Positions 1 to 10,517 of a stretch of DNA of 10,517 bases are shown piece after piece. Location: the IMG/VR virus record IMGVR_UViG_2585427755_000006; one strand, 5' to 3'. The DNA is from a virus. Taxonomy: Duplodnaviria; Heunggongvirae; Uroviricota; Caudoviricetes. The notes under the pieces are model-generated. The model was given only the letters and a program-made list of their open reading frames with translations, made no database searches and was not told where the DNA came from. Numbering within the stretch: the stretch's first letter is position 1; every line of letters starts with the position of its first letter. The position numbers were made by a program, and so were the translations under genes.

Positions 1-91
1 TAGACTGGCCCCCTGAATCTCCAGACAACCAATATCACTTAAATAAGTGATAGTCTTAATACTAGTTTTTAGACTAGTCATTGGAGAGCAG

Positions 92-457
92 ATGATTGAT
101 GTCTTAGGACCGGAGAAACGCAGACGGCGTACTACACAGGAAAAGATCGCTATTGTTCAGCAGAGTTTTGAACCGGGAATGACGGTCTCCCTTGTTGCCC
201 GGCAACACGGTGTGGCAGCCAGCCAGTTATTTCTCTGGCGCAAGCAATACCAGGAGGGAAGTCTTACTGCTGTGGCCGCAGGAGAGCAGGTCGTTCCTGC
301 CTCTGAACTTGCTGCTGCCATGAAGCAGATTAAAGAACTCCAGCGCCTGCTCGGCAAAAAAACGATGGAAAATGAACTCCTTAAAGAAGCCGTTGAATAC
401 GGGCGTGCAAAAAAGTGGATAGCGCACGCGCCCTTATTGCCCGGGGATGGGGAGTAA
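92..457 (+). CDS. insC: IS2 transposase OrfA (InsC), 121 aa, HTH DNA-binding
   Basis: ATG at 92 after GGAGAG RBS. Translation [40 protein letters not shown]... matches recalled InsC. The track ORF from 47 is an upstream GTG extension. Confidence 0.9.
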
Positions 458-1320
458 GCTTAGTCAGCCGTTGTCTCCGGGTGTCGCGTGCGCAGTTGCA
501 CGTAATTCTCAGACGAACCGATGACTGGAAAGATGGTCGCCGCAGCCGTCACTCAGATGATACGGATGTGCTTCTCCGTATACACCATGTTATCGGAGAG
601 CTGCCCACGTATGGTTATCGTCGGGTATGGGCGCTGCTTCGCAGACAGGCCGAACTTGATGGTATGCCTGCGATCAATGCCAAACGTGTTTACCGGATCA
701 TGCGCCAGAATGCGCTGTTGCTTGAGCGAAAAACCGCTGTACCGCCATCGAAACGGGCACATACTGGCAAAGTGGCCGTGAAAGAAAGCAATCAACGATG
801 GTGCTCTGACGGGTTCGAGTTCCGCTGTGATAACGGAGAAAAACTGCGAGTCACGTTCGCGCTGGACTGCTGTGACCGTGAGGCACTGCACTGGGCAGTC
901 ACTACGGGCGGCTTCGACAGTGAAACAGTACAGGACGTAATGCTGGGAGCGGTGGAACGCCGCTTCGGCAACGAGCTTCCGGCGTCTCCAGTAGAGTGGC
1001 TGACGGATAATGGTTCATGCTACCGGGCTAATGAAACACGGCAGTTTGCCCGGATGTTGGGGCTTGAACCGAAGAACACGGCGGTGCGGAGTCCGGAGAG
1101 TAACGGCATAGCAGAGAGCTTCGTGAAAACGATAAAGCGTGACTACATCAGTATCATGCCTAAACCAGACGGGTTAACGGCAGCAAAGAACCTTGCAGAG
1201 GCGTTCGAGCATTATAACGAATGGCATCCGCATAGTGCACTGGGTTATCGCTCGCCACGGGAATATCTGCGGCAGCAGGCCAGTAATGGGTTAAGTGATA
1301 ACAGGTGTCTGGAAATATAG
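415..1320 (+). CDS. insD: IS2 transposase OrfB (InsD), 301 aa, DDE catalytic domain; expressed as InsCD fusion by -1 frameshift
   Basis: Translation [23 protein letters not shown]...NRCLEI matches recalled InsD. Overlaps insC in the -1 frame with slippery CAAAAAAG at 408-415. Confidence 0.9.
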
Positions 1321-1743: not shown

Positions 1744-1884
1744 TCATACTCCTGCTCCTGTCAGGGTTTTGGCGTAATTCCTCAGTATTCGGTAATCGGT
1801 CAAAACAGAACTGGGGAAACGATATAAGCGCAGGCGCATCCAGCGGTGGCGAAGAAGTTCTGCCATATTAAACTCAAACATCAT
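1744..1884 (-). CDS. ylcG: Small DLP12-type protein YlcG (46 aa)
   Basis: Hand translation [49 protein letters not shown] overlaps the rusA stop (ATGA). Below the track's length cutoff. Confidence 0.55.
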
Positions 1885-2243
1885 TCATTCCCCATTTCGG
1901 TGATGGTCAGTTCCAGCCTCCCACCTTTGGTAACAGGCATCTTCACAACGCGGTAATCAACGACCTGAGCATCATCCAGCCAGAAACCTGCTTTAGTGAG
2001 TGCGTCAAAAGCGGCTTTTTGCAGATTATCCAGGTCACGGCGACGGCGATCCGGCATGTGGCACTCAATGCGGATTTTCACAGGCATAGCCAGGCCGATA
2101 TCCAGCATTGCGTTTTTAATGATTCGGGCGACGTTATCGCGGTATGCCTGCCCCTCTGCGCTGACGTGCGTGCGCCCGCGATTATGGCGGTAATAGCGAT
2201 TATTGCTCGGAGGCCAGGGTAATGTGATGCTGTAGGTATTCAC
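1881..2243 (-). CDS. rusA: Holliday junction resolvase RusA (120 aa)
   Basis: Translation [41 protein letters not shown]... matches recalled RusA. GTG start overlaps ybcO stop (GTGA). Confidence 0.9.
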
Positions 2244-2530
2244 GCCTTAATAACCCCCTCTTTCAGCCAGATAACCTGTGTTCTCGCCATACCTTCCAGC
2301 GCGCATTCTTTTGCATACTCAGCATCGACAAAATGTGTGCGGCGGTCGATTTCGTCGTGACAGGCAGAACATGCGATGGTGGCAATCAGGTCTGGCGGTT
2401 TGATACCGGTACCGCACAATCCAGCCAGCCGGATATGTGCCAGTACAGACGTTTCAGAATTGCCATTACATACGCCAGGGATTCTTACCTGGCATTCCCG
2501 ACCACGCGCTGCTTTTCTCAAATCAGCCAT
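2240..2530 (-). CDS. ybcO: YbcO, DUF1364 phage protein (96 aa)
   Basis: Translation [38 protein letters not shown]...; ATG at 2528-2530 lies inside the ninE 3' end. The track ORF is extended upstream to 2569. Confidence 0.8.
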
Positions 2531-2693
2531 GATTCCTCCTTGCTGCCAGTCGCAACCATTTTTTATCAACCAGGCTGGCGGTATATCCGAGCAGAGTTGG
2601 TATTTCGGATGGCTTCAGCTCAGGTTTACGCTTACGACGATTTGGTACTTTGTAGATGTGTCCGTTCATGACACGAATAAGCGGTGTAGCCAT
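2523..2693 (-). CDS. ninE: NinE (56 aa)
   Basis: Hand translation [59 protein letters not shown] overlaps ybcN stop (TAATG). Below the track cutoff. Confidence 0.75.
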   Translation of the reverse strand: MATPLIRVMNGHIYKVPNRRKRKPELKPSEIPTLLGYTASLVDKKWLRLAARRNHG

Positions 2694-3148
2694 TACGCCT
2701 CCTGCTTGTCGCGCAGCAGCTGGAACTCGCAGCTCTGCGGAATAGTCAGGTGGCAGCCAATATTCATCGCCCAGGCTTCAACCTTACACAGGAAGACATA
2801 CATCTCTCCGGTATCGAGATCGGAGGTATGACGTAATGACTGAATGGTGGTGATTTCACCGGTTACGACATCAACCAGTTCTTTGGTTTCATAACCGAGA
2901 TAAGTGTGTTTGAGAGCATCTTTTACCCAAGCTGGAGTGGCGAACGTTTTACCCCTGCTGATGAGGTATTCACTGATTTCGCTGTACCACATGTGGCTGA
3001 GTGCATTCTGGGAAAGACTGCGTCTCTCGCGCCATGGTTTAAGCACCATGCGAAAGCATTTGCCGTCCTCCAGATAAGGCTGGATCTGCCGACCGATAGA
3101 GGTGAAGTTACCGCGATGCAGTTTGATGCCATCTTGTGGGAAGTTCAC
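2693..3148 (-). CDS. ybcN: YbcN (151 aa), lambdoid nin-region protein
   Basis: Translation [35 protein letters not shown]... matches recalled YbcN. GTG start at 3146-3148 behind a GGAGGTGA Shine-Dalgarno. Confidence 0.85.
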
Positions 3149-3246
3149 GCTTCACCTCCGCAGAGATCAAACGCTGGATGCAAGATATCGCAGGTGCATT
3201 TCTGCATCTGTGAAGGGAGAAGATAGTTTGGATTGTATGTGCGCAT
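3145..3246 (-). CDS. ylcH: Small protein YlcH-like (33 aa)
   Basis: Hand translation [33 protein letters not shown]. Stop overlaps ybcN GTG (GTGA). GGGGA RBS 5 nt upstream of ATG at 3244-3246. Matches the 33-aa ylcH slot upstream of ybcN in K-12. Confidence 0.5.
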
Positions 3247-3342
3247 AAACGTCCCCGTTTAGCGCAGAAGTCACCGGAGTTGTTCAAGCTCCAATGGCAT
3301 GATTATGGCTGGTTGATTATGGGAAATCAAATGTGCTGAAAA

Positions 3343-3849
3343 TTAGTCTGCCAAGTCTTCCTCAGTCACAACTGGGTAATTCCAAATATCAAAAAAAGCT
3401 ATAGCCTCCTGCCATTTGTTCCATAAATTATCAAGTACTTGTGTAGGTTCCGTACTTTTAAAAACAGAATCAGCCGCATCACCGTTATGAACTTCCTCGT
3501 ACAGTTCCATTATTAGCAGATTAACAAAGTACTGTTTCAACATTAATGCCTGATTACCTTCTTTCTGCTGGCTATCCTGCTTGATGATCTCCATCGCCCG
3601 TACCAGGCACCTGATGATATCCGCTGCATCATTAACGCTCCATTCAGATCCGCGCTTATCTGTAGCTGATGTATTGGCTCTCTCAGCGCAAGCCTTTAAA
3701 GACTCATAAAGGTAAACTCTATTTTGTAGCTGCAGCGCTTTTTTTGACGTGTACCAACTTGCAAGCGCCGACCCCGCTGCGGCTAATGTGCCAAACGCAG
3801 AAATGCCTGCTGCTATTGCACTTAAGTCGGCACTGTCAAAGTTCCACAT
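3343..3849 (-). CDS. Hypothetical 168-aa protein with a single predicted N-terminal transmembrane helix (AIAAGISAFGTLAAAGSALASWY) and an acidic C-terminal domain; no recognised family
   Basis: Clean ORF with ATG at 3847-3849 and AAGGTG RBS. Looks lower in GC than the flanking nin genes (by eye). Sits where K-12 DLP12 has ybcL/ybcM. Confidence 0.7.
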   Translation of the reverse strand: MWNFDSADLSAIAAGISAFGTLAAAGSALASWYTSKKALQLQNRVYLYESLKACAERANTSATDKRGSEWSVNDAADIIRCLVRAMEIIKQDSQQKEGNQALMLKQYFVNLLIMELYEEVHNGDAADSVFKSTEPTQVLDNLWNKWQEAIAFFDIWNYPVVTEEDLAD

Positions 3850-3881
3850 TATCGTTACACCTTATATAAATACCCCTCAGT

Positions 3882-3910
3882 AATATCCAATAAGGTATGT
3901 GAACAATCAA
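3882..3910 (-). promoter_or_regulatory. Candidate sigma70 promoter for the 168-aa gene (-35 TTGATT, 17-bp spacer, -10 GATATT)
   Basis: Minus-strand TTGATTGTTCACATACCTTATTGGATATT about 35 bp upstream of the ATG, directly downstream of the terminator at 4026-4068. Confidence 0.3.
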
Positions 3911-4025
3911 TATAATTTTATCCGTATCGGCACATAGCGATTTGAATGCTACTGGTAATGGTGTCTTTTAGATTATTTCGTCCAGTTTACAGCACCCGTA
4001 TTTTATGAAATGGACTCGCACATTA

Positions 4026-4068
4026 CCCCAAAAAATGCCAGCACTTCCGTCATCGTAGAATGCTGGCA
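4026..4068 (-). terminator. Rho-independent terminator after the 107-aa gene
   Basis: Inverted repeat TGCCAGCA (4036-4043) / TGCTGGCA (4061-4068) followed on the minus strand by TTTTTT (plus-strand A-run 4030-4035), about 20 bp past the stop at 4088. Confidence 0.5.
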
Positions 4069-4087
4069 GTATTTCTAACTAGTGACT

Positions 4088-4411
4088 TTATTGCAACAGA
4101 TTCTGACGGAAATATGGTAACACTCGACTCCACTTATCATCCAGCCACGGCTGGAATTTTACATGTGCCGTTTCTCTGGCGAGGATTGCTCGCGCTCTGG
4201 TGAGTATCTGGGGATATTCTTGCTCGATGGAAGTGAAGCGACCAGCTTCACGATGCTCCGCAACCTGAAGAAGGGGAGTAACGTTCTGGCAGGCGGTTAA
4301 CATCGCATCCCCTGCTCGCCATAACCAGGCGAGTGTGCAAAGTTCGTTATCAGTGAATTGTTTTGTGATTGGGAATTGTTGAACTGCTAGAACGAGAACG
4401 CCAGCATCCAT
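4088..4411 (-). CDS. Hypothetical 107-aa soluble protein; no recognised family
   Basis: ORF MDAGVLVLAVQQFPITKQFTDNELCTLAWLWRAGD... with ATG at 4409-4411 and GGGA RBS. Flanked by its own candidate extended -10 promoter and its own terminator. Confidence 0.65.
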   Translation of the reverse strand: MDAGVLVLAVQQFPITKQFTDNELCTLAWLWRAGDAMLTACQNVTPLLQVAEHREAGRFTSIEQEYPQILTRARAILARETAHVKFQPWLDDKWSRVLPYFRQNLLQ

Positions 4412-4488
4412 TGGCAGTCCCTATAGTAAAACCATAGCTCAGGACGCTTCGTTCAGGATAGATAATTTTATTGTACTTACCTAACTTT

Positions 4489-4500
4489 CTTACTATAGCA
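4489..4500 (-). promoter_or_regulatory. Candidate extended -10 promoter (TGcTATAGT) for the 107-aa gene
   Basis: Minus-strand TGCTATAGT (plus 4492-4500) about 80 bp upstream of the ATG. The -35 is weak, as is common for extended -10 promoters. Confidence 0.3.
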
Positions 4501-4522
4501 CGGTTGAAAAAGTGATTATTAC

Positions 4523-6049
4523 TCAAAAATAAACCTCACCATCAACCATATATTTGAGAGTACTTATCGCCTGCTGGGCGGATATTGTTTTCATTAAAGG
4601 ATAGTGTTTAAAAACAATGCCATTCATAAAATAGATATCACAGGTTTTATTATCTGTATTGATTATGATTTTTTCGAATGTTTTATAGGCAAGTGTACGA
4701 CATAGCTCTCGCCCATTTTTACTGGTTAAGTCAATAGCATGAAAATCACCAAGTGAACTCACCGCTTTACTCTTCAAAGTTTTTAATGATACCGAAGCCC
4801 TTCGTAATTCCTTATCTAATACTCTGATTTTTTCTGCTATAGCGGTAACTTCAGGCGCAACAGATAATGCAGCAATTAAATTATTAATTTTCATCTGGAG
4901 CTCAATAATTTTCAACTCTAAAGTTTCATTAGCATCTTTCTTGTTTTCAACTGGTTGGATTTTGCTACAATTAAAAAGCAACTCATTAATGATATTATAA
5001 TCAACCAAATCTCTCTTTATTGATGGCCTGTCACATCGATGCAGTCTTCTCATCGGACAAACATAATAGCCATGCAAACTTCCAGATACCGCATGAATAA
5101 TCATGGTATTACCACAAGCCTCGCACTTCATAACTGTTCGAAGTAGATTTATCAACATAGGATTTTTGCTACTATTGCTAATACCAAAAGGTGCCAACCG
5201 AATTTCCTGCACAGCGTAAAACAAATCATCTGATATGACTCTGGGATAATAGCCAGCGATTTCACTTATTCCTTTACCTCTTGCACGATATGAAGGTACG
5301 CATATACCTATCAGAGCTTTATTCGCTAATAATTTTTCAATTACAGAAGGCCCCCATGCACTTTCTTTTCCTGAGAAATTTTTTACAGCATGATCATTTA
5401 AATACTTGGCTATTGCATTCAATGAGCGCCTTTCCATCCTGAGTTTAAAAATTAGCTCAATAGTTTTCACCCTGTCGGGGTCTGGAACAAAAGCCGTTCT
5501 TTTGTCATCTAAGGATAGCCATCTAGGACAAGACGCCGTCATAATCGTACCTGATTCCAGTGCATCCTGCCGTTTTTTCTTCCATGATAATTTAACCCGA
5601 CTTGACTTTATCTCGCTTTCTTCATTTGCCCTTTGTGCTATAAGTATGGCTTTTATTAATGAATATGGCTCATTCAAAGAGTCAATATTATAGACTGTAT
5701 TGTCGCAAAGAGTTATAACATCAATACCGTGATTCAAAATCAATTTCAGACGTTCAATCGCTTCACCGACTTTTTCTCTTGAAAGCCTGTCCAGACTTTC
5801 AACTAACAATGTAGTTCCTGGCAATATATAACCATGCTCTATAGCATCTAAAAATTCCGAAAAAGCTCCTGATTGTGCATGCTTTCCTTTGAATGCACTT
5901 AATCCTAAATCTTCATATGTTATGGTATCAAGATAATAATCACTATTTACCTTTAACCATTCAGCAATAAGTCTTCTCTGTCGGTTTAATGAGTCGCCAG
6001 ACATCTGACCTGGTGATGAAAATCGCATATATGCTATGGCTTTTTTCAT
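4523..6049 (-). CDS. ybcK: Large serine recombinase YbcK (508 aa)
   Basis: N-terminal resolvase-type catalytic motif AYMRFSSPGQ, C-terminal cysteine cluster CEACGNTMIIH...YYVCPMRRLHRCD, and a match to recalled K-12 YbcK. AGGTG RBS. AT-rich. Confidence 0.9.
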   Translation of the reverse strand: MKKAIAYMRFSSPGQMSGDSLNRQRRLIAEWLKVNSDYYLDTITYEDLGLSAFKGKHAQSGAFSEFLDAIEHGYILPGTTLLVESLDRLSREKVGEAIERLKLILNHGIDVITLCDNTVYNIDSLNEPYSLIKAILIAQRANEESEIKSSRVKLSWKKKRQDALESGTIMTASCPRWLSLDDKRTAFVPDPDRVKTIELIFKLRMERRSLNAIAKYLNDHAVKNFSGKESAWGPSVIEKLLANKALIGICVPSYRARGKGISEIAGYYPRVISDDLFYAVQEIRLAPFGISNSSKNPMLINLLRTVMKCEACGNTMIIHAVSGSLHGYYVCPMRRLHRCDRPSIKRDLVDYNIINELLFNCSKIQPVENKKDANETLELKIIELQMKINNLIAALSVAPEVTAIAEKIRVLDKELRRASVSLKTLKSKAVSSLGDFHAIDLTSKNGRELCRTLAYKTFEKIIINTDNKTCDIYFMNGIVFKHYPLMKTISAQQAISTLKYMVDGEVYF

Positions 6050-6230
6050 GGTGACACCTGCTAACGTATGTTTTTATAAACCTTAGTGGTGAGATATAAT
6101 TTTTGTTTAATTTTTATTTAAAAAGACAATTAAGGTCACATTATCTTGAATATACAACAATAATCGTATTGCAATTTTCTTACACCATAATCTTGAAAGC
6201 ACAAAAGAATACATAAAAAAAATAAAGACA

Positions 6231-6276
6231 TTAACAAAAAGCATAAAACGAGGCTCATATAAATATAAGAGCCTCC
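6231..6276 (-). terminator. Rho-independent terminator downstream of emrE
   Basis: GAGGCTC (6250-6256) / GAGCCTC (6269-6275) stem with a 12-nt AU loop, followed on the minus strand by GTTTTATGCTTTTTGTT. Confidence 0.4.
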
Positions 6277-6306
6277 ATATTTTAGTCGTTTAGAAACAAA
6301 TTATTT

Positions 6307-6639
6307 TTAATGTGGTGTGCTTCGTGACAATAAATTAATAACCAACACTCCGGCACAAATCAACATCATGCCTATAATGGCTGGCATGTCCAGCCGTTGG
6401 CCGAAAAATCCCCATGACAGTAAGCTAATCAGGACAATACCGACTCCTGACCAGATAGCATAAGCAATCCCTGTAGGAATATAAGCCAGCGTCTGCGCTA
6501 ATAACCAGAATGATGCACAATAACAAATAATTGTACCAACAGATGGCCATAACCGTGTAAAACCTTCTGAAAACTTCATTAAGGTTGTACCAATGACCTC
6601 TGCAAGTATTGCACCACCAAGATAAATATAAGGGTTCAT
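6307..6639 (-). CDS. emrE: SMR-family multidrug efflux transporter EmrE (110 aa, 4 TM helices)
   Basis: Translation MNPYIYLGGAILAEVIGTTLMKFSEGFTRLWPSVG... matches recalled EmrE. The track ORF carries an 18-codon upstream extension. Confidence 0.9.
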   Translation of the reverse strand: MNPYIYLGGAILAEVIGTTLMKFSEGFTRLWPSVGTIICYCASFWLLAQTLAYIPTGIAYAIWSGVGIVLISLLSWGFFGQRLDMPAIIGMMLICAGVLVINLLSRSTPH

Positions 6640-6654
6640 AGCATATTCTTTCCT

Positions 6655-6689
6655 GTTCAAACTGGAGAGAATTGTACTACAGTTTGAAC
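6655..6689. repeat. Perfect 10-bp inverted repeat GTTCAAACTG/CAGTTTGAAC with a 15-nt spacer, between the ren stop and emrE start
   Basis: Read directly from the sequence at 6655-6664 and 6680-6689. Ends about 16 nt before the emrE ATG. No T-tract, so not a terminator. Confidence 0.5.
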
Positions 6690-6706
6690 TCAACTCACCT
6701 GTTTCA

Positions 6707-7009
6707 TCATTGTGTACCCATTGATGTTCTTTTATATACCCTCAATACCCGTTTCATCGCGGCACTCTGGCGACACTCCTTAAAAATCAGATTCGTGCTC
6801 ACCTTTCCTTCCCGTTCTTCTCTGGTAGCGAACCGGTAATACACCGTTCGCCAGACCTTACCATCAACGACCAGGATTCCTGCCCGCGCCATTTTAGCCG
6901 CAGCCTGATTTATGCTGGTTACGGTTGCGCCTGTTACCGCGGCAACGTCCTGTGCACAGAAGCTCTTATGCGTCCCCAGGTAATGAATAATTGCCTCTTT
7001 GCCCGTCAT
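6707..7009 (-). CDS. renD: Lambda Ren-like protein (100 aa)
   Basis: Translation MTGKEAIIHYLGTHKSFCAQDVAAVTGATVTSINQAAAKMARAG... matches recalled lambda Ren. ATG overlaps an upstream in-frame stop (ATGA), as at the lambda P/ren junction. Confidence 0.8.
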   Translation of the reverse strand: MTGKEAIIHYLGTHKSFCAQDVAAVTGATVTSINQAAAKMARAGILVVDGKVWRTVYYRFATREEREGKVSTNLIFKECRQSAAMKRVLRVYKRTSMGTQ

Positions 7010-7104
7010 ACACTTGCTCCTTTCAGTCCGAACTTAGCTTTAATTTCTGCGATCTTCGCCAGAGCCTGTGCACGATTTAGAGGTTTAGGCGCAATCACTT
7101 TCGT
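7006..7104 (-). pseudogene. Probable 3' remnant of replication gene P (last ~32 codons)
   Basis: Minus-strand frame open from 7104 to the stop at 7006-7008, translating ...TKVIAPKPLNRAQALAKIAEIKAKFGLKGASV*. No start codon; an in-frame TAG sits at 7105-7107. Assignment to P is from the lambda P-ren gene order and coupling, not from a verified match. Confidence 0.4.
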
Positions 7105-7213
7105 CTACTCCGTTACAAAGCGAGGCTGGGTATTTCCCGGCCTTTCTGTAATCCGAAATCCCCTGAAAGCACAGCGGCTGGCTGAGGAGATAAATAATAA
7201 ATGGGGGGGCTGT

Positions 7214-7405
7214 ATGCACAAAGCATCTACCGTTAAGTTAAGAACGAGTATCGAGATGGCACATAGCCTCGCTCAAATTGGAGTCAGGTTTGTGCCAATA
7301 CCAGTAGAAACAGACGAAGAATTTCACACGTTAGCCGCATCCCTTTCACAAAAGCTGGAAATGATGGTGGCGAAAGCAGAAGCAGATGAGAGAGACCAGG
7401 TATGA
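7214..7405 (+). CDS. Small 63-aa protein, lambda exo-xis orf63-like by position and size
   Basis: ATG at 7214 behind a GGGGGGG Shine-Dalgarno. Translation MHKASTVKLRTSIEMAHSLAQIGVRFVPIPVETDEEFHTLAASLSQKLEMMVAKAEADERDQV. First in a coupled chain of small genes. Confidence 0.6.
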   Translation: MHKASTVKLRTSIEMAHSLAQIGVRFVPIPVETDEEFHTLAASLSQKLEMMVAKAEADERDQV

Positions 7406-8316: not shown

Positions 8317-8566
8317 GCCTAGGTTGAATGTACAAGATTTGCATACGTAAGAGCAAAAGACAAGGGAGAATTGATCAGAGTTATTACCTGCCAACCAACG
8401 GGATATTACGCTTACGTACCATGTAACTAGGAATCCTTGAAGTGGCAGCCTAACTGTGGATACACTGAAATGGCGATTTGGTAACATGTTTCGCACAAGG
8501 CTGTTACTACGCTTAGAGATAATCAGTCATGATTAAATGCTTTGTAAAAAGTAAAAGGAAATTACA

Positions 8567-9181
8567 ATGAAAAAATCAACACTAATTTTAGGGCTTACGT
8601 TAATTGTCTCATCTCAAATACCATCGGCAATGGCAAAAAATGAATCAAAACTTTGGGTTGTTGTTGATCGAACGGAAAGACATACCTGCCCTTCAAGTAA
8701 ATGTGGAGTGGCTGGGAAACTATTTTTCAGGGAAGGCGTAGATTTTCTAGAAAAAAAAGGTGAATGGGTTCGTATAACTGAGCCATATTCAGCCTCATGT
8801 GTGGGAGGGGAAAGCGAATATATTAAAGAAGGTAATAAATCCTGCACAAGAAAAAACGGAATCGTTAATGGCAAGTTTTCAGAATGGGTTAAACTTAGTG
8901 ATCTTAGCAGTGAAAGGCCATCAGATCCTGCTGAAAATGCGAGCAGAAATGATACCTTAATCAAAGGATCTGATGACTACCGTATATACAAAAAAGAGTT
9001 TTCTTCGGCAGCTAGGAAGTTAATAAGTGAAGGTGTCTGCACGGAGAGCGATTTTAAGGAAGTTGGAGGGTGGATGGCATCAAGCAATAAGGGTGAAAAC
9101 ATCTATTTCACATATTGCGGAGGAATGACGTTGTCGAACAGAATATATCTAGACGTTAAAAGTGGAAAGACTTTTAGATAA
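8567..9181 (+). CDS. Secreted/periplasmic hypothetical protein (204 aa) with cleavable signal peptide and an SH3b-like N-terminal region
   Basis: Signal peptide MKKSTLILGLTLIVSSQIPSAMA with AxA cleavage motif. The stretch LWVVVDRTERHTCPSSKCGVAGKLFFREGVDFLEKKGEWVRI resembles a bacterial SH3 fold. Six cysteines. AAGGAAA RBS. Lies in the AT-rich island. Confidence 0.7.
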   Translation: MKKSTLILGLTLIVSSQIPSAMAKNESKLWVVVDRTERHTCPSSKCGVAGKLFFREGVDFLEKKGEWVRITEPYSASCVGGESEYIKEGNKSCTRKNGIVNGKFSEWVKLSDLSSERPSDPAENASRNDTLIKGSDDYRIYKKEFSSAARKLISEGVCTESDFKEVGGWMASSNKGENIYFTYCGGMTLSNRIYLDVKSGKTFR

Positions 9182-9252
9182 TATGATATTACCAATGACA
9201 GCATTAATTTAATGCCTCCATAGAATTATCTCTAGGAAGTAAGTATAAGAAA

Positions 9253-9289
9253 AGTCCGCACAATGAGCTGCTGCGGGCTTTGTGTTATT
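9253..9289 (+). terminator. Candidate rho-independent terminator after the secreted-protein gene
   Basis: AGTCCGCA (9253-9260) / TGCGGGCT (9272-9279) stem with one G-U pair and an 11-nt loop, followed by TTGTGTTATT. Confidence 0.4.
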
Positions 9290-9474
9290 CGCCATATTTT
9301 ATGAAGCAAATACGACACTATAGATAATTAAGCGTTACTGGTTGTCGATTCCTCACTCATTCCTGCTGATGGCTGTCTTCTTGTATGTGTCATTGAAGGG
9401 TAATATCGCGTAAAAAGATACCGGAAGTATCCGCGCCGCTATGATTGTCTTTCTCCTGATGCAGGAAAAGCAGA

Positions 9475-9813
9475 ATGACTAAATCAGCAGCAGAGCGCAA
9501 AGCCGATCAGAGAGCCAAGCAAGCATCATCCGGTATGCGTAAGCTGGAGCTTGTACTTGATGCTCAGGAAATTGAAATGCTGGAGCGTAACTGAGCCACG
9601 CGCCGCTTCAGGCGTGCGCCTTACGAGTTTGGTGAGTACATAGCGTTACTGAGCCGCCAGGATGATGCACGTGTGCGCTGGCGTATAAAATCGATTAGCA
9701 GAAAACGTTGCCGTAAGTGCGGCGAGAGAGTTCCTGTTAATTCATGCCCGTGTAATGGTGACTCACAATACTGGGTGACCAAAGGCTGGCACGAAACAAA
9801 ATTAATGATATAA
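9475..9813 (+). pseudogene. 112-codon reading frame interrupted by one in-frame TGA (9592-9594): 39-aa N-terminal part plus 72-aa C-terminal part with a zinc-ribbon motif
   Basis: ATG at 9475 gives MTKSAAERKADQRAKQASSGMRKLELVLDAQEIEMLERN, then TGA, then the same frame continues ATRRFRRAPYEFGEYIALLSRQDDARVRWRIKSISRKRCRKCGERVPVNSCPCNGDSQYWVTKGWHETKLMI*. No ATG in the second part; an internal GTG at 9673 is the only alternative start. Confidence 0.45.
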
Positions 9814-9841
9814 ATCTCTGTGACATGTCACGGAGGCGGCA

Positions 9842-10270
9842 ATGAAATTAGACCAGCAATATCTAAAAGATCTACTTATCGCATTCGAAAAAACTTATGG
9901 CCCTGACACGATGCTTAGTGAACTAGAGGATAATGGCTTTAATAGATATGACCAAAATTTTATTTTCCATATGCGATTATTATGTGACTACGAATTAATA
10001 GTTAGGGTTGATGGAAAACCTGGGTTCGGTCATATAATGTCCAACGAGTTAGGGGAAGGTGTTGAATATAGTTGGCTCGAAGTACCACTGAGGTTGACAG
10101 CAAGAGGGCATGATTTTATTGCTGACTTACGTCAAAAGGAGGTCTGGCAAGCTATAAAAACAAACTTTAAGGATGAGGGAATTGGTACTCTTATGAGTGT
10201 TTCAAAATCACTAGCAAAAGGCTTTGCAAGAAAAAAAATAAAAGATATTACAGGAATAGATATTGAATAA
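9842..10270 (+). CDS. Hypothetical 142-aa protein, prophage cargo, no confirmed family
   Basis: ATG at 9842 with GGAGG RBS (cacGGAGGcggcaATG). Clean AT-rich ORF ending 36 bp before the IS911-like terminus. Confidence 0.7.
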   Translation: MKLDQQYLKDLLIAFEKTYGPDTMLSELEDNGFNRYDQNFIFHMRLLCDYELIVRVDGKPGFGHIMSNELGEGVEYSWLEVPLRLTARGHDFIADLRQKEVWQAIKTNFKDEGIGTLMSVSKSLAKGFARKKIKDITGIDIE

Positions 10271-10306
10271 TTCTTAGCATAAAGCAACTACTGCCTTTGG
10301 TGAAAA

Positions 10307-10517
10307 TGAAGTGGTTTACTGAATTTGGCCACCTGAACAGAGGTGATATGCTCACCTCAGAACAACACAGGTGCCATAATGAAAAAAAGAAATTTCAGCG
10401 CAGAGTTTAAACGCGAATCCGCTCAACTGGTCGTTGACCAGAATTACACCGTGGCAGATGCAGCCAGCGCTATGGATGTCGGCCTTTCCACAATGACGCG
10501 ATGGGTGAAACAATTAC
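10307..10517 (+). mobile_element. Left end of an IS3-family insertion sequence closely related to IS911 (partial, runs off the window)
   Basis: Terminus TGAAGTGGTTTACTGAATTTGGCCACC resembles the IS911 left inverted repeat TGAAGTGGTCAACAAAAACTGGCCACC, followed by an IS911-type orfA. Confidence 0.8.
10379..10517 (+). CDS. IS3-family transposase OrfA (IS911 InsN-like), N-terminal 46 codons only
   Basis: Translation [46 protein letters not shown] matches recalled IS911 OrfA apart from a few substitutions. AGGTG RBS. Confidence 0.85.

Follow-up and report, generated by a model that had tools for sequence, protein, structure and literature searches.

The AT-rich emrE-ybcK block of a defective lambda-like Escherichia coli prophage is a known accessory arrangement in the slot between ren and ybcN

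The stretch of DNA analysed here (the window; 10,517 nucleotides, IMG/VR virus record IMGVR_UViG_2585427755_000006) carries the well-known emrE gene for drug efflux and its serine-recombinase neighbour ybcK as AT-rich accessory cargo of a defective lambda-like (DLP12-like) Escherichia coli prophage. This arrangement is already known as the textbook gene order of DLP12 and is not a new mobile element. The block is probably an ordinary, already known composite moron that occupies the slot between ren and ninB/ybcN and has spread by recombination in conserved flanks. An initial annotation had suggested that the recombinase YbcK once mobilised the block and the swappable cargo downstream. On the sequence comparisons given below, YbcK-driven mobilisation of the block appears unsupported. 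These comparisons covered 5426 complete genomes, 80 IMG/VR contigs, 12 sequenced phages and 79 YbcK relatives from other species.

The locus is 100% identical in E. coli, where the RefSeq order is ren, emrE, ylcJ (frameshifted), ybcK, a P22AR C-terminal fragment, a hypothetical protein and ybcN. In the window, the features from ren to ybcN are on the minus strand. The ren ORF (6707..7009; annotated 'protein ren') is lambda/lambdoid-like up to nucleotide ~267 (window ~6743), and its last ~36 nucleotides (6707-6742) are a tail found only in the emrE-linked allele, as placed by alignment and by BLAST breakpoints at 6734/6743. It is followed by the emrE leader (6640..6742), emrE (6307..6639; Pfam, PHROG and RefSeq), an intrinsic-terminator-like hairpin with a U-run (6236..6275) and ybcK (4523..6049). 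A frameshifted remnant of the small ORF ylcJ (6107..6258), annotated by RefSeq in the identical locus, lies inside the emrE-ybcK spacer. Beyond ybcK are a 3' flank that travels with the gene in alignments of the phage and prophage types (4446..4522), a rha' remnant that retains only the C-terminal P22AR_C domain (PF10548) of a Rha/antirepressor-like gene (4088..4411), and a 168-aa ORF (3343..3849; phrog_1779) of unassigned function that is part of the Rha cassette, which PhiR5_1 and PhiR26_1 carry without emrE-ybcK. All cargo types end, on the distal side, in a conserved linker with a 33-aa ORF (3149..3331; BLAST). This linker lies upstream of the NinB-like gene ybcN (2693..3148), the first conserved nin-region gene past the variable slot, and the ybcN/ninE/ybcO/rusA genes (1881-3148; ORF, Pfam and RefSeq) are beyond the slot. 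The initial annotation had placed emrE and ybcK between ren and nin-type genes; the ORFs are found there and match the annotated E. coli arrangement.

In DLP12 of K-12, the gene order is renD-emrE-ybcK-ybcL-ybcM-ybcN-ninE-ybcO-rusA-ylcG-quuD. The window shares with DLP12 the order and orientation of ren-emrE-ylcJ-ybcK, the same nin-type genes and the same kind of deletion in the immunity/replication region. Nucleotide identity to DLP12 is 97% for ybcK, and protein identity is 98% for EmrE. An EmrE copy with 98% protein identity is found in an E. coli chromosome (L019) at ~568 kb, which we take to be the K-12 DLP12 site. Unlike DLP12, the window contains the truncated rha and the 168-aa ORF in place of ybcL-ybcM, and its quuD is cut by IS2. 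The prophage adjoins ybhC in a 100%-identical genome, whereas the DLP12-type copy of C325 is at tRNA-Arg/intD.

In lambda, ninB follows ren after 73 bp with no cargo between them, as had been stated in the initial annotation. This spacer holds a terminator hairpin, presumably tR2. The cargo of the slot in other phages is PD-lambda-1 and Rha (PhiR26_1), an acyltransferase and a lipoprotein (PhiR30_1) or a full-length Rha (PhiR5_1), and the emrE-ybcK block is missing from all three. The block is extra DNA between genes that are adjacent in related phages and its base composition deviates from theirs, as in a moron, a concept for which lambda bor and lom are classical. Like other ren-ninB cargo (PD-lambda-1, PhiR26_1), it consists of extra AT-rich genes that lambda does not contain at this position, with mosaic joints and a terminator-like hairpin, here after emrE. 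Unlike other lambdoid morons, it is composite: a transporter that benefits the host is paired with a gene for a recombinase. PADLOC gave no defence-model match for the block, and the idea of a defence system was rejected, as YbcK, EmrE, rha' and the 168-aa ORF all gave no hits. A literature search found no useful published description of the ren-ninB hotspot, the PhiR phages or Perceval.

The GC content is 0.28-0.41 across 4350-6750 and ~0.50 in ren and in ybcN-rusA. For the block itself (4399-6742), it is 0.358, versus 0.471 for the remaining operon and 0.47-0.53 for the surrounding phage genes. Within the block, GC is 0.36 in ybcK (GC3 0.29), 0.41 in emrE and 0.26 in the spacer between them. 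The block is thus more AT-rich than its ren/nin neighbours (~0.36 versus ~0.50), as had been seen from the sequence alone. Other cargo of the same slot is also AT-rich (ybcM, GC 0.36; PD-lambda-1, GC 0.35). Because AT-richness is common to unrelated cargo in the ren-nin slot, it does not point to a single source for emrE and ybcK.

The block was delimited by comparison with emrE-less phages to about 4399-6742. The ren-side joint is at ~6742, within the 3' end of ren (alignment and BLAST breakpoints), the ybcK-side joint is at about 4399-4446, within the truncated rha, and the variable region ends at 3306-3331 in every BLAST comparison. The boundaries first proposed, ~6700 and ~3250-4520, are refined accordingly. 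In the alignment, the PD-lambda-1, acyltransferase, Rha and emrE types and lambda itself diverge at a single nucleotide position of ren. Since all cargo types diverge at this position, the ren-side joint is a general mosaic joint. The alignment of the window with the full-length rha of PhiR5_1, PhiR26_1 and IdasGreatGrand starts at ~4398 and runs towards lower positions, and rha therefore appears, from these alignments, to be truncated where the emrE-ybcK block joined it. In some phages, ~100 nt of the ybcN linker is duplicated upstream of rha (repeats at 4004-4101 of L005 and 4073-4180 of L009).

In the search for flanking repeats that the initial annotation had proposed, no direct or inverted repeats above chance were found at the block boundaries. 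The att sites of large serine recombinases are short and non-repeated, with a core of 2 bp, and long repeats are not needed. For this reason the boundary-repeat test has low power, and the absence of repeats is weak counter-evidence. Phage DNA lies on either side of ybcK, which is located in the middle of an operon, and no att site was found at an element boundary. No precise presence/absence polymorphism at a short common core, as expected of a Tn4451/Tn5397- or SCCmec-like element or of an integrated phage, was found; the joints are the mosaic break in ren and the truncated rha. No inverted or excised arrangements are present among the 80 contigs. The initial annotation had held that absent repeats and recombination products, together with mutated catalytic residues, would speak against its proposal; the former are indeed absent, but the catalytic residues are intact.

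The emrE product is 110 aa long from MNPY and matches PF00893 over its full length (E = 2.7e-35 over 2-93 of 93). The extension of its ORF to 6693 reflects only an upstream TTG. The translation (MNPYIYLGGAILAEV...) contains the essential membrane-embedded Glu14, and the full-length ~110-aa domain together with this residue places EmrE in the small multidrug resistance (SMR) family of efflux transporters. The protein belongs to phrog_1395, in the moron category. Relative to the fliE-locus allele, emrE has a dN/dS of 0.01-0.02.

In the emrE leader, a palindrome with 13-bp arms (6655-6689) directly precedes the ribosome-binding site of emrE, and a direct repeat resembles the ren 3' end (6697-6708). 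The F11 allele, which lacks ybcK, has the leader in common up to window 6716. An RNA element in the leader was considered and rejected, as its hairpin is no better than shuffles (z = -0.58) and has no Rfam support; no Rfam matches at E <= 1 occur anywhere in the window. The hairpin after emrE (GGAGGCUC...GAGCCUC) has a folding energy of -15.5 kcal/mol (z = -2.48), and 5 of 200 shuffles are as good. Comparison with F11 indicates that it is missing in the ybcK-less emrE-ybcL-ybcM loci. A consensus promoter scan of the sequence is at chance level (13 found, 12.1 expected). In K-12, sigma-70 promoters were located by SELEX in the emrE-ybcK and ybcK-ybcL spacers, in H-NS-bound DNA (PMC3946193), and a Rho/NusG-dependent terminator was located in the emrE-ybcK spacer, within the ybcK 5' UTR (PMC4150792).

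The ybcK ORF encodes an intact large serine recombinase (508 aa), which Pfam, PHROG and profile comparisons assign to the integrase class. The Pfam domains are Resolvase, Recombinase and Zn_ribbon_recom (PF00239, PF07508 and PF13408), with E = 7.8e-19 for PF00239 over 1-141 of 145, and the match to phrog_95 'integrase' has E = 5.6e-120. Residues R9, S11, Q15, D87, R88 and R91 are invariant across 18 YbcK relatives (YxRxS...Q; LDRLSR). A single-sequence search of the PDB with phmmer gave no match, and profiles were needed. In profile alignments, the catalytic residues align with the motifs of the TP901-1 integrase catalytic domain 3bvp (E = 3.5e-5) and of 3guv, and positions 190-476 match the A118 integrase 4kis (RD, ZD, coiled coil; E = 2.5e-15). 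Both the N-terminal catalytic domain and the C-terminal recombinase, zinc-ribbon and coiled-coil regions of a large serine recombinase are present. YbcK is like the A118/LI, TP901-1 and phiC31 integrases in domain architecture and catalytic motif. It is unlike the A118, TP901-1 and phiC31 integrases in that the similarity is remote, the gene is located mid-operon and neither an att site nor a recombination directionality factor was found.

Across the window and three sequenced phages, ybcK is a full-length ORF with a dN/dS of 0.06-0.09 over a dS of 0.11-0.18. Matches are full length in 1398 of the 1424 complete genomes that contain the gene, and truncated or IS-hit copies occur. Judged by its full architecture, intact catalytic motif and purifying selection, YbcK is not degraded. 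The purifying selection on ybcK implies that the recombinase does something. The literature search returned no functional work on YbcK as a recombinase.

The gene emrE was detected in 3692 of the 5426 complete genomes and ybcK in 1424. In 2281 genomes, emrE-ybcL-ybcM occurs without ybcK in a prophage remnant that adjoins fliE. This remnant carries the 92%-identity emrE allele in the order fliE / emrE-ybcL-ybcM-Q'-porin. In the complete genomes, ybcK is found approximately 1:1 with the high-identity emrE allele (1424 versus 1408). The order and orientation of ren-emrE-ybcK are constant in the 12 sequenced phages and in all 80 IMG/VR contigs where no contig end intervenes. Viable lambdoid carriers of the block include Perceval, 4A7, Turner, PhiR68_2 and others. 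Among the 80 contigs and the 79 foreign relatives, the emrE-ybcK pair is confined to lambdoid phages and prophages, where it follows ren, and the same recombinase-cargo unit was not found in unrelated contexts. No SMR gene is present within 10 kb of any of the 79 YbcK relatives from other species. emrE and ybcK are separable units.

The YbcK orthologues in other Enterobacterales prophages are 42-60% identical to YbcK and of the same length. Most differ from ybcK in their location: they terminate the prophage, preceded by tail-fibre and Caudo_TAP genes and bordering on host genes. One is beside a Shufflon_N-like gene in a conjugative-type element, and one, in Pantoea dispersa, occupies a nin-like position; SMR genes adjoin none of them. 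Most are AT-rich relative to their own host prophages. A role as a tail-fibre or shufflon invertase was rejected for the orthologues, as no TAP or fibre segment is duplicated in inverted orientation between TAP and the gene for the recombinase.

In the preferred reading, the block (~4399-6742) occupies a hypervariable slot between ren and ninB/ybcN, within the early-right operon of the lambdoid prophage. Its first unit is emrE with its own leader and terminator-like hairpin, a proton-coupled SMR pump that may benefit the lysogen. The second is ybcK; the spacer in front of it is very AT-rich and, in K-12, is bound by H-NS and subject to Rho termination. The block was probably assembled by two illegitimate joins, of which one fell in the 3' end of ren and the other in mid-rha. 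Its later spread among lambdoid phages and prophages probably took place by homologous recombination in ren and the ybcN linker, and the DNA downstream of ybcK has probably been remodelled by deletions, replacements and IS hits. Expression of ybcK may depend on read-through from N-antiterminated pR transcripts. YbcK may be a captured integrase kept for some recombination function other than moving the block. The moron explanation would be incomplete if the YbcK substrate lies at the block edges.

The mobilisation by a recombinase in the initial proposal is not supported, given the absence of boundary repeats, the general ren joint, the truncated rha, the scattered breakpoints downstream, the 2281 genomes with emrE but no ybcK, the lack of SMR genes near the 79 YbcK relatives and the unspecific AT-richness. 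A narrower version, in which the ybcK unit alone (~2.1 kb: emrE-distal hairpin, ylcJ, ybcK and 3' flank) is a minimal mobile element with its own recombinase and emrE is a bystander, is unlikely. An emrE-ybcL-ybcM phage would have received the unit between its emrE and the cargo downstream. Between the K-12 type and the fliE-locus allele, there is a clean ~2.08-kb indel that holds exactly the ybcK unit, with only ~4 nt in its place in F11, and this indel could be an insertion. The 50-60%-identical relatives at prophage termini, the position of an integrase, in Atlantibacter (beside ssrA), Erwinia (beside lepA), Ewingella and Yersinia are consistent with such an element, as are the AT-richness of the relatives and the intact, selected catalytic residues. 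However, the two emrE alleles are 8% diverged (dS ~0.4), so the indel is old and is equally explained by deletion. Moreover, in the 80 viral contigs ybcK always has ren-emrE upstream, and its ~1:1 ratio with the high-identity emrE allele also argues against independent movement.

An attB/attL/attR reading was rejected, as the seeming similarity of the F11 junction (AATTATCCTTGAGATAAC) to the ybcK 3' flank (AATTATCTTTGACGAAAC) is not significant (score 18, versus 16 +/- 2.3 in shuffles). The F11 filler aligns significantly with DNA contiguous to ybcL. No att-like relation was found between this empty-site allele and the ybcK flanks, in tests that short att sites could escape. The 3' flank (4446-4522) hardly differs between the window, Turner, Perceval and O157 types; in the K-12 type the similarity to it is only weak (local alignment with the window 21 versus 15.4 +/- 2.2). 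In an alignment with the YbcK orthologues, no conserved att-like 3'-flank motif is shared. The flank has one 27-nt AT-rich match to Atlantibacter (30 versus 18.3 +/- 2.3), at a different offset and missing in the second Atlantibacter locus.

It is quite unlikely that YbcK is an active accessory recombinase that provides a second, Int-independent integration route or exchanges the cargo just past its stop codon, as initially imagined for the swappable cargo. Viable phages with ybcK in mid-operon have their own tyrosine Int/Xis, and the strong purifying selection on the gene in such phages would fit this. A 42%-identical relative at the nin-like position of the Pantoea dispersa lambdoid prophage, without emrE, would fit as well. 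The block does adjoin a variable cassette, as had been noted initially, with five downstream classes among the 80 IMG/VR contigs, and the cargo classes switch ~80-120 nt from the ybcK stop (K-12 type ~4446/4514, O157 type 4457). However, the breakpoints are not at one nucleotide but are scattered (window 4037, 4095, 4106, 4240, 4457, about 4446/4514, and 4542 with IS3). The O157-type break at 4457 is an internal deletion that rejoins rha' sequence, and others are 280-490 nt further. No repeat or similarity was found between the proximal and distal cargo boundaries. The lack of inverted or excised arrangements among the 80 contigs and the silencing of ybcK by H-NS and Rho in K-12 (PMC3946193, PMC4150792) also argue against an active role. 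That ybcK has no function and is left over from an old integration module, hitch-hiking with emrE, is extremely improbable: its mid-operon position with no adjoining att site, its silencing in K-12 and the truncated or IS-hit copies would suit a relic, but the low dN/dS, the full-length ORFs and genome matches and the retention of all catalytic residues do not.

The composite moron remains the preferred reading, and it bears on the lambdoid phages in several ways. The ren-ninB slot is a general cargo hotspot of these phages. All sampled E. coli emrE copies are prophage-borne, either behind ren with ybcK or in the fixed fliE-adjacent remnant without it. ybcK encodes a conserved, by sequence catalytically intact integrase-class recombinase in a model organism, which makes it a cheap experimental target. 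Very tentatively, and at low probability, YbcK-type recombinases may recur in the lambdoid nin region as an accessory gene under selection, in E. coli and independently in Pantoea dispersa, with a reaction unrelated to primary-att integration. If so, YbcK could serve as a back-up integration route, or in the site-specific capture or exchange of the cargo just downstream.

The window covers part of a defective E. coli lambdoid prophage, whose early-right operon it reads in reverse. The minus-strand genes are, in order, quuD, ylcG, rusA, ybcO, ninE, ybcN, a 168-aa ORF (3343-3849), an rha' fragment, ybcK, ylcJ, emrE, ren and a P remnant, beyond which lie the plus-strand genes of the exo-xis/ea region. 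The minus-strand rha' fragment encodes 107 aa, the sole content of which is the C-terminal P22AR domain of a Rha/antirepressor-like protein, and ylcJ, on the same strand between emrE and ybcK, is frameshifted. A 4-kb query around emrE-ybcK matches E. coli chromosomes at 100% identity, and the RefSeq annotation gives the same gene set. In the 100%-identical genome, the prophage adjoins ybhC and carries its own excisionase (Xis) and tyrosine integrase (Int). A DLP12-type copy in E. coli C325 adjoins tRNA-Arg and intD instead of ybhC.

IS2 (window ~1-1330; insC/insD ORFs 47-1320, plus strand) interrupts the antiterminator gene quuD (1245-1673) at its 3' end. Homology to intact phages begins at window 1331, 56 nt before the Q stop, so the Q reading frame continues into IS2 sequence. 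The short remnant of the replication gene P is joined directly to plus-strand DUF1317/DUF1382 genes (window 7006-7405; 15907-16306 in the 100%-identical locus L001), so that most of P is missing from the prophage, as are O, cro, cI, N and the recombination genes. Two more AT-rich stretches (GC 0.37-0.39) are present on the plus strand. The first (8400-9450) contains a 204-aa ORF (phrog_8310) whose N-terminus resembles a signal peptide, and the second (9750-10500) a 142-aa ORF annotated DUF2513 (phrog_585); both are probably further accessory cargo in the ea/b region.

The presence of AT-rich emrE and ybcK genes between ren and the nin genes, described in the initial annotation, is borne out by ORFs, domains and GC profile. 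The ybcK gene (4523-6049) encodes Resolvase, Recombinase and zinc-ribbon domains, and emrE (6307-6639) encodes a full-length SMR protein. GC content is 0.28-0.41 over window 4350-6750 compared to ~0.50 on both sides; by gene, it is 0.36 in ybcK, 0.41 in emrE, 0.26 in the spacer between them and 0.50-0.53 in ren, ybcN, ybcO and rusA. Lambda ren does directly precede the nin genes, as had been stated: its gap to ninB is 73 bp and holds a terminator-like hairpin, which we take from the lambda map to be tR2. The ren-emrE-ybcK arrangement is the annotated DLP12 order, already in K-12 and phage records. The K-12-type chromosome and K-12-type phages have ren-emrE-ybcK-ybcL-ybcM-ybcN, the Perceval annotation describes its ybcK as a homologue of DLP12 YbcK, and emrE was already given as a DLP12 prophage gene in a survey of SMR genes (PMC2716321). 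A terminator-like hairpin lies downstream of emrE. Directly upstream of the emrE ribosome-binding site is a palindrome with 13-bp arms (6655-6689) that is kept in the ybcK-less allele; shuffled sequences fold equally well (z = -0.58), and no Rfam family matches it.

The ren-emrE-ybcK genes recur in twelve viable lambdoid phages with sequenced genomes, including Perceval, 4A7, Lambda_4C10, Turner and PhiR68_2. The ren...ybcN frame is shared by other phages, but what lies between differs: full-length rha and the 168-aa ORF in PhiR5_1, PD-lambda-1 and rha in PhiR26_1, an acyltransferase and a lipoprotein in PhiR30_1, and nothing in lambda. In an alignment of ren 3' ends, every cargo type, the emrE type included, diverges at one column, ren nt ~267 (window ~6742). 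On the ybcK side, similarity to phages with full-length rha restarts at window 4398, within rha; joining of the block therefore truncated this gene. These joints thus place the emrE-ybcK block at ~4399-6742. The distal boundary common to all cargo types is at 3306-3331, upstream of ybcN. Direct or inverted repeats, proposed as a sign of a mobile block, do not occur above chance at the edges of the block. One repeat, GATGAAAC(G/A)GGT, is found at a joint (window 6747-6758 and 6697-6708) and is extendable to about 17/20 nt. One copy lies where the conserved portion of ren ends, and the other spans the ren stop codon; because both are on the same side of the block, the repeat is a recombination scar and not a flanking duplication. 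Judged from its sequence, the second copy resembles the remaining 3' terminus of a different ren allele (..MKQVS*). In PhiR26_1 (L005 4004-4101) and IdasGreatGrand (L009 4073-4180), ~100 nt of the linker that precedes ybcN (window 3169-3276) recur upstream of rha at 87-89% identity. These direct repeats bracket the Rha and 168-aa cassette there and could allow homologous recombination to add or remove it.

Among 80 ybcK-holding IMG/VR contigs, ren-emrE-spacer-ybcK has a single order and orientation wherever the contig extends far enough. The DNA after ybcK falls into five classes: rha' adjoining ybcN, without any match to the window's 168-aa ORF; rha' and the 168-aa ORF; rha' and an alpha/beta hydrolase; ybcL-ybcM; and almost nothing. 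Of 5426 complete E. coli genomes, 3692 have emrE but only 1424 have ybcK. Identity of emrE is bimodal, with a 95-100% allele in about 1408 genomes and a ~92% allele in 2281. The latter is in a fixed prophage remnant between fliE and yedK (emrE-ybcL-ybcM-Q fragment-porin) that contains neither ybcK nor ybcN-quuD (E. coli F11, L016 5265-7418, and AH01, L017). Every sampled E. coli emrE copy is in prophage-derived DNA. No SMR gene, ren, ybcN or rusA is found within 10 kb of 79 YbcK relatives from other species. Other cargo in the slot is similarly AT-rich (ybcM 0.36, PD-lambda-1 0.35, PhiR5_1 cargo 0.37), so composition is no argument for a joint origin of emrE and ybcK. The proposed single module therefore stands as an invariant link within lambdoid phages, but it is a composite of two separable units. 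Two decay variants of the block are also present: ren'-emrE-ybcK bracketed by two IS3-family copies beside intD/tRNA-Arg (E. coli C325, L100 3748-8519), and a ybcK of which only the first ~50 codons remain, fused to the ybcN linker (L018 5995-6150).

Compared to the fliE-locus allele, K-12-type phages contain ~2.08 kb of extra DNA, made up of the post-emrE hairpin, ylcJ, ybcK and 318 nt of 3' flank. A recombinase-driven insertion of this 2.1-kb ybcK unit beside emrE is unlikely. The filler DNA at the fliE-locus junction is contiguous ybcL-upstream sequence, and change points downstream of ybcK are scattered (window 4037, 4095, 4106, 4240, 4457 and ~4446/4514, with an IS3 insertion at 4542). 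In the O157:H7 type, an internal deletion is rejoined within rha'. This is a pattern of deletion and replacement, not of single-site exchange. The fliE-locus junction was also examined as a candidate attB with similarity to the 3' flank of ybcK and rejected, the alignment being non-significant. Orthologue 3' flanks share no convincing motif with the E. coli ybcK flank, and the 80 IMG/VR contigs contain no inverted or excised forms of the block. The earlier suggestion that YbcK mobilised the block and its swappable cargo gains no support from these scattered breakpoints, the lack of an empty-site signature and the lack of rearranged forms. For large serine recombinases, short, non-repeated sites with a 2-bp core suffice; the negative site tests therefore lower this idea without settling it.

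By sequence comparison, YbcK is a complete large serine recombinase. R9, S11, Q15, D87, R88 and R91 are invariant across 18 relatives, the catalytic motifs align with the TP901-1 integrase catalytic domain (N-terminal profile), and over the C-terminal 290 residues there is a match (E = 2.5e-15) to A118 integrase, in its recombinase, zinc-ribbon and coiled-coil region. The protein belongs to phrog_95, 'integrase'. The mutated catalytic residues envisaged for an inactive enzyme are not seen. Relatives at 50-60% identity are at prophage ends, just after tail-fibre/assembly genes and beside host genes (ssrA/smpB, lepA), the usual place of an integrase. Four of these (L010, L012, L014 and L103) are 0.2-1 kb from a Caudo_TAP (tail-fibre-assembly) gene, at the ends of four unrelated tail modules. 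Their neighbours are host genes or remnants at the junction, namely tmRNA/smpB, lepA, an aldehyde dehydrogenase gene and an apparent tRNA 3' end, judged by eye, where ARAGORN finds no tRNA. The GC content of the terminal relatives is 0.385-0.417 compared to 0.48-0.54 in neighbouring tail genes (measured except in the Yersinia locus, L012). One relative is on a conjugative-type element. A 42%-identical relative is in a nin-like position in a Pantoea dispersa lambdoid prophage without emrE (L102 8001-9518), with replication/ParB-HTH genes on one side and KilA-N, a NinG-like gene and Q on the other. This is the same functional position as that of E. coli ybcK; the Pantoea gene has a GC content of 0.52, similar to that of the genes around it.

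In K-12, H-NS binds the AT-rich spacers flanking ybcK; the same spacers harbour constitutive promoters (PMC3946193), and a Rho/NusG-dependent terminator precedes the gene (PMC4150792). In the lysogen, ybcK is therefore kept silent, and its expression would come chiefly from early transcripts that have been antiterminated. Present activity of YbcK as a back-up integrase or cargo-exchange enzyme is quite unlikely. Between the ybcK alleles of the window and three phages, dS is 0.11-0.18 and dN/dS is 0.06-0.09; YbcK is therefore under purifying selection, which contradicts the highly improbable view of ybcK as a dead relic.

As a whole, the block is probably a composite moron of ordinary type, occupying the cargo slot between ren and ninB. 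In this composite moron, emrE, with its leader and terminator-like hairpin, would be an efflux pump serving the lysogen, and ybcK would be a captured integrase-class recombinase retained for some function. The block was probably assembled through illegitimate joins and would spread by homologous recombination in the conserved flanks. Of some appeal is the role that such an integrase-class recombinase, conserved and intact, would play in the nin region when the phage already has Int and Xis.
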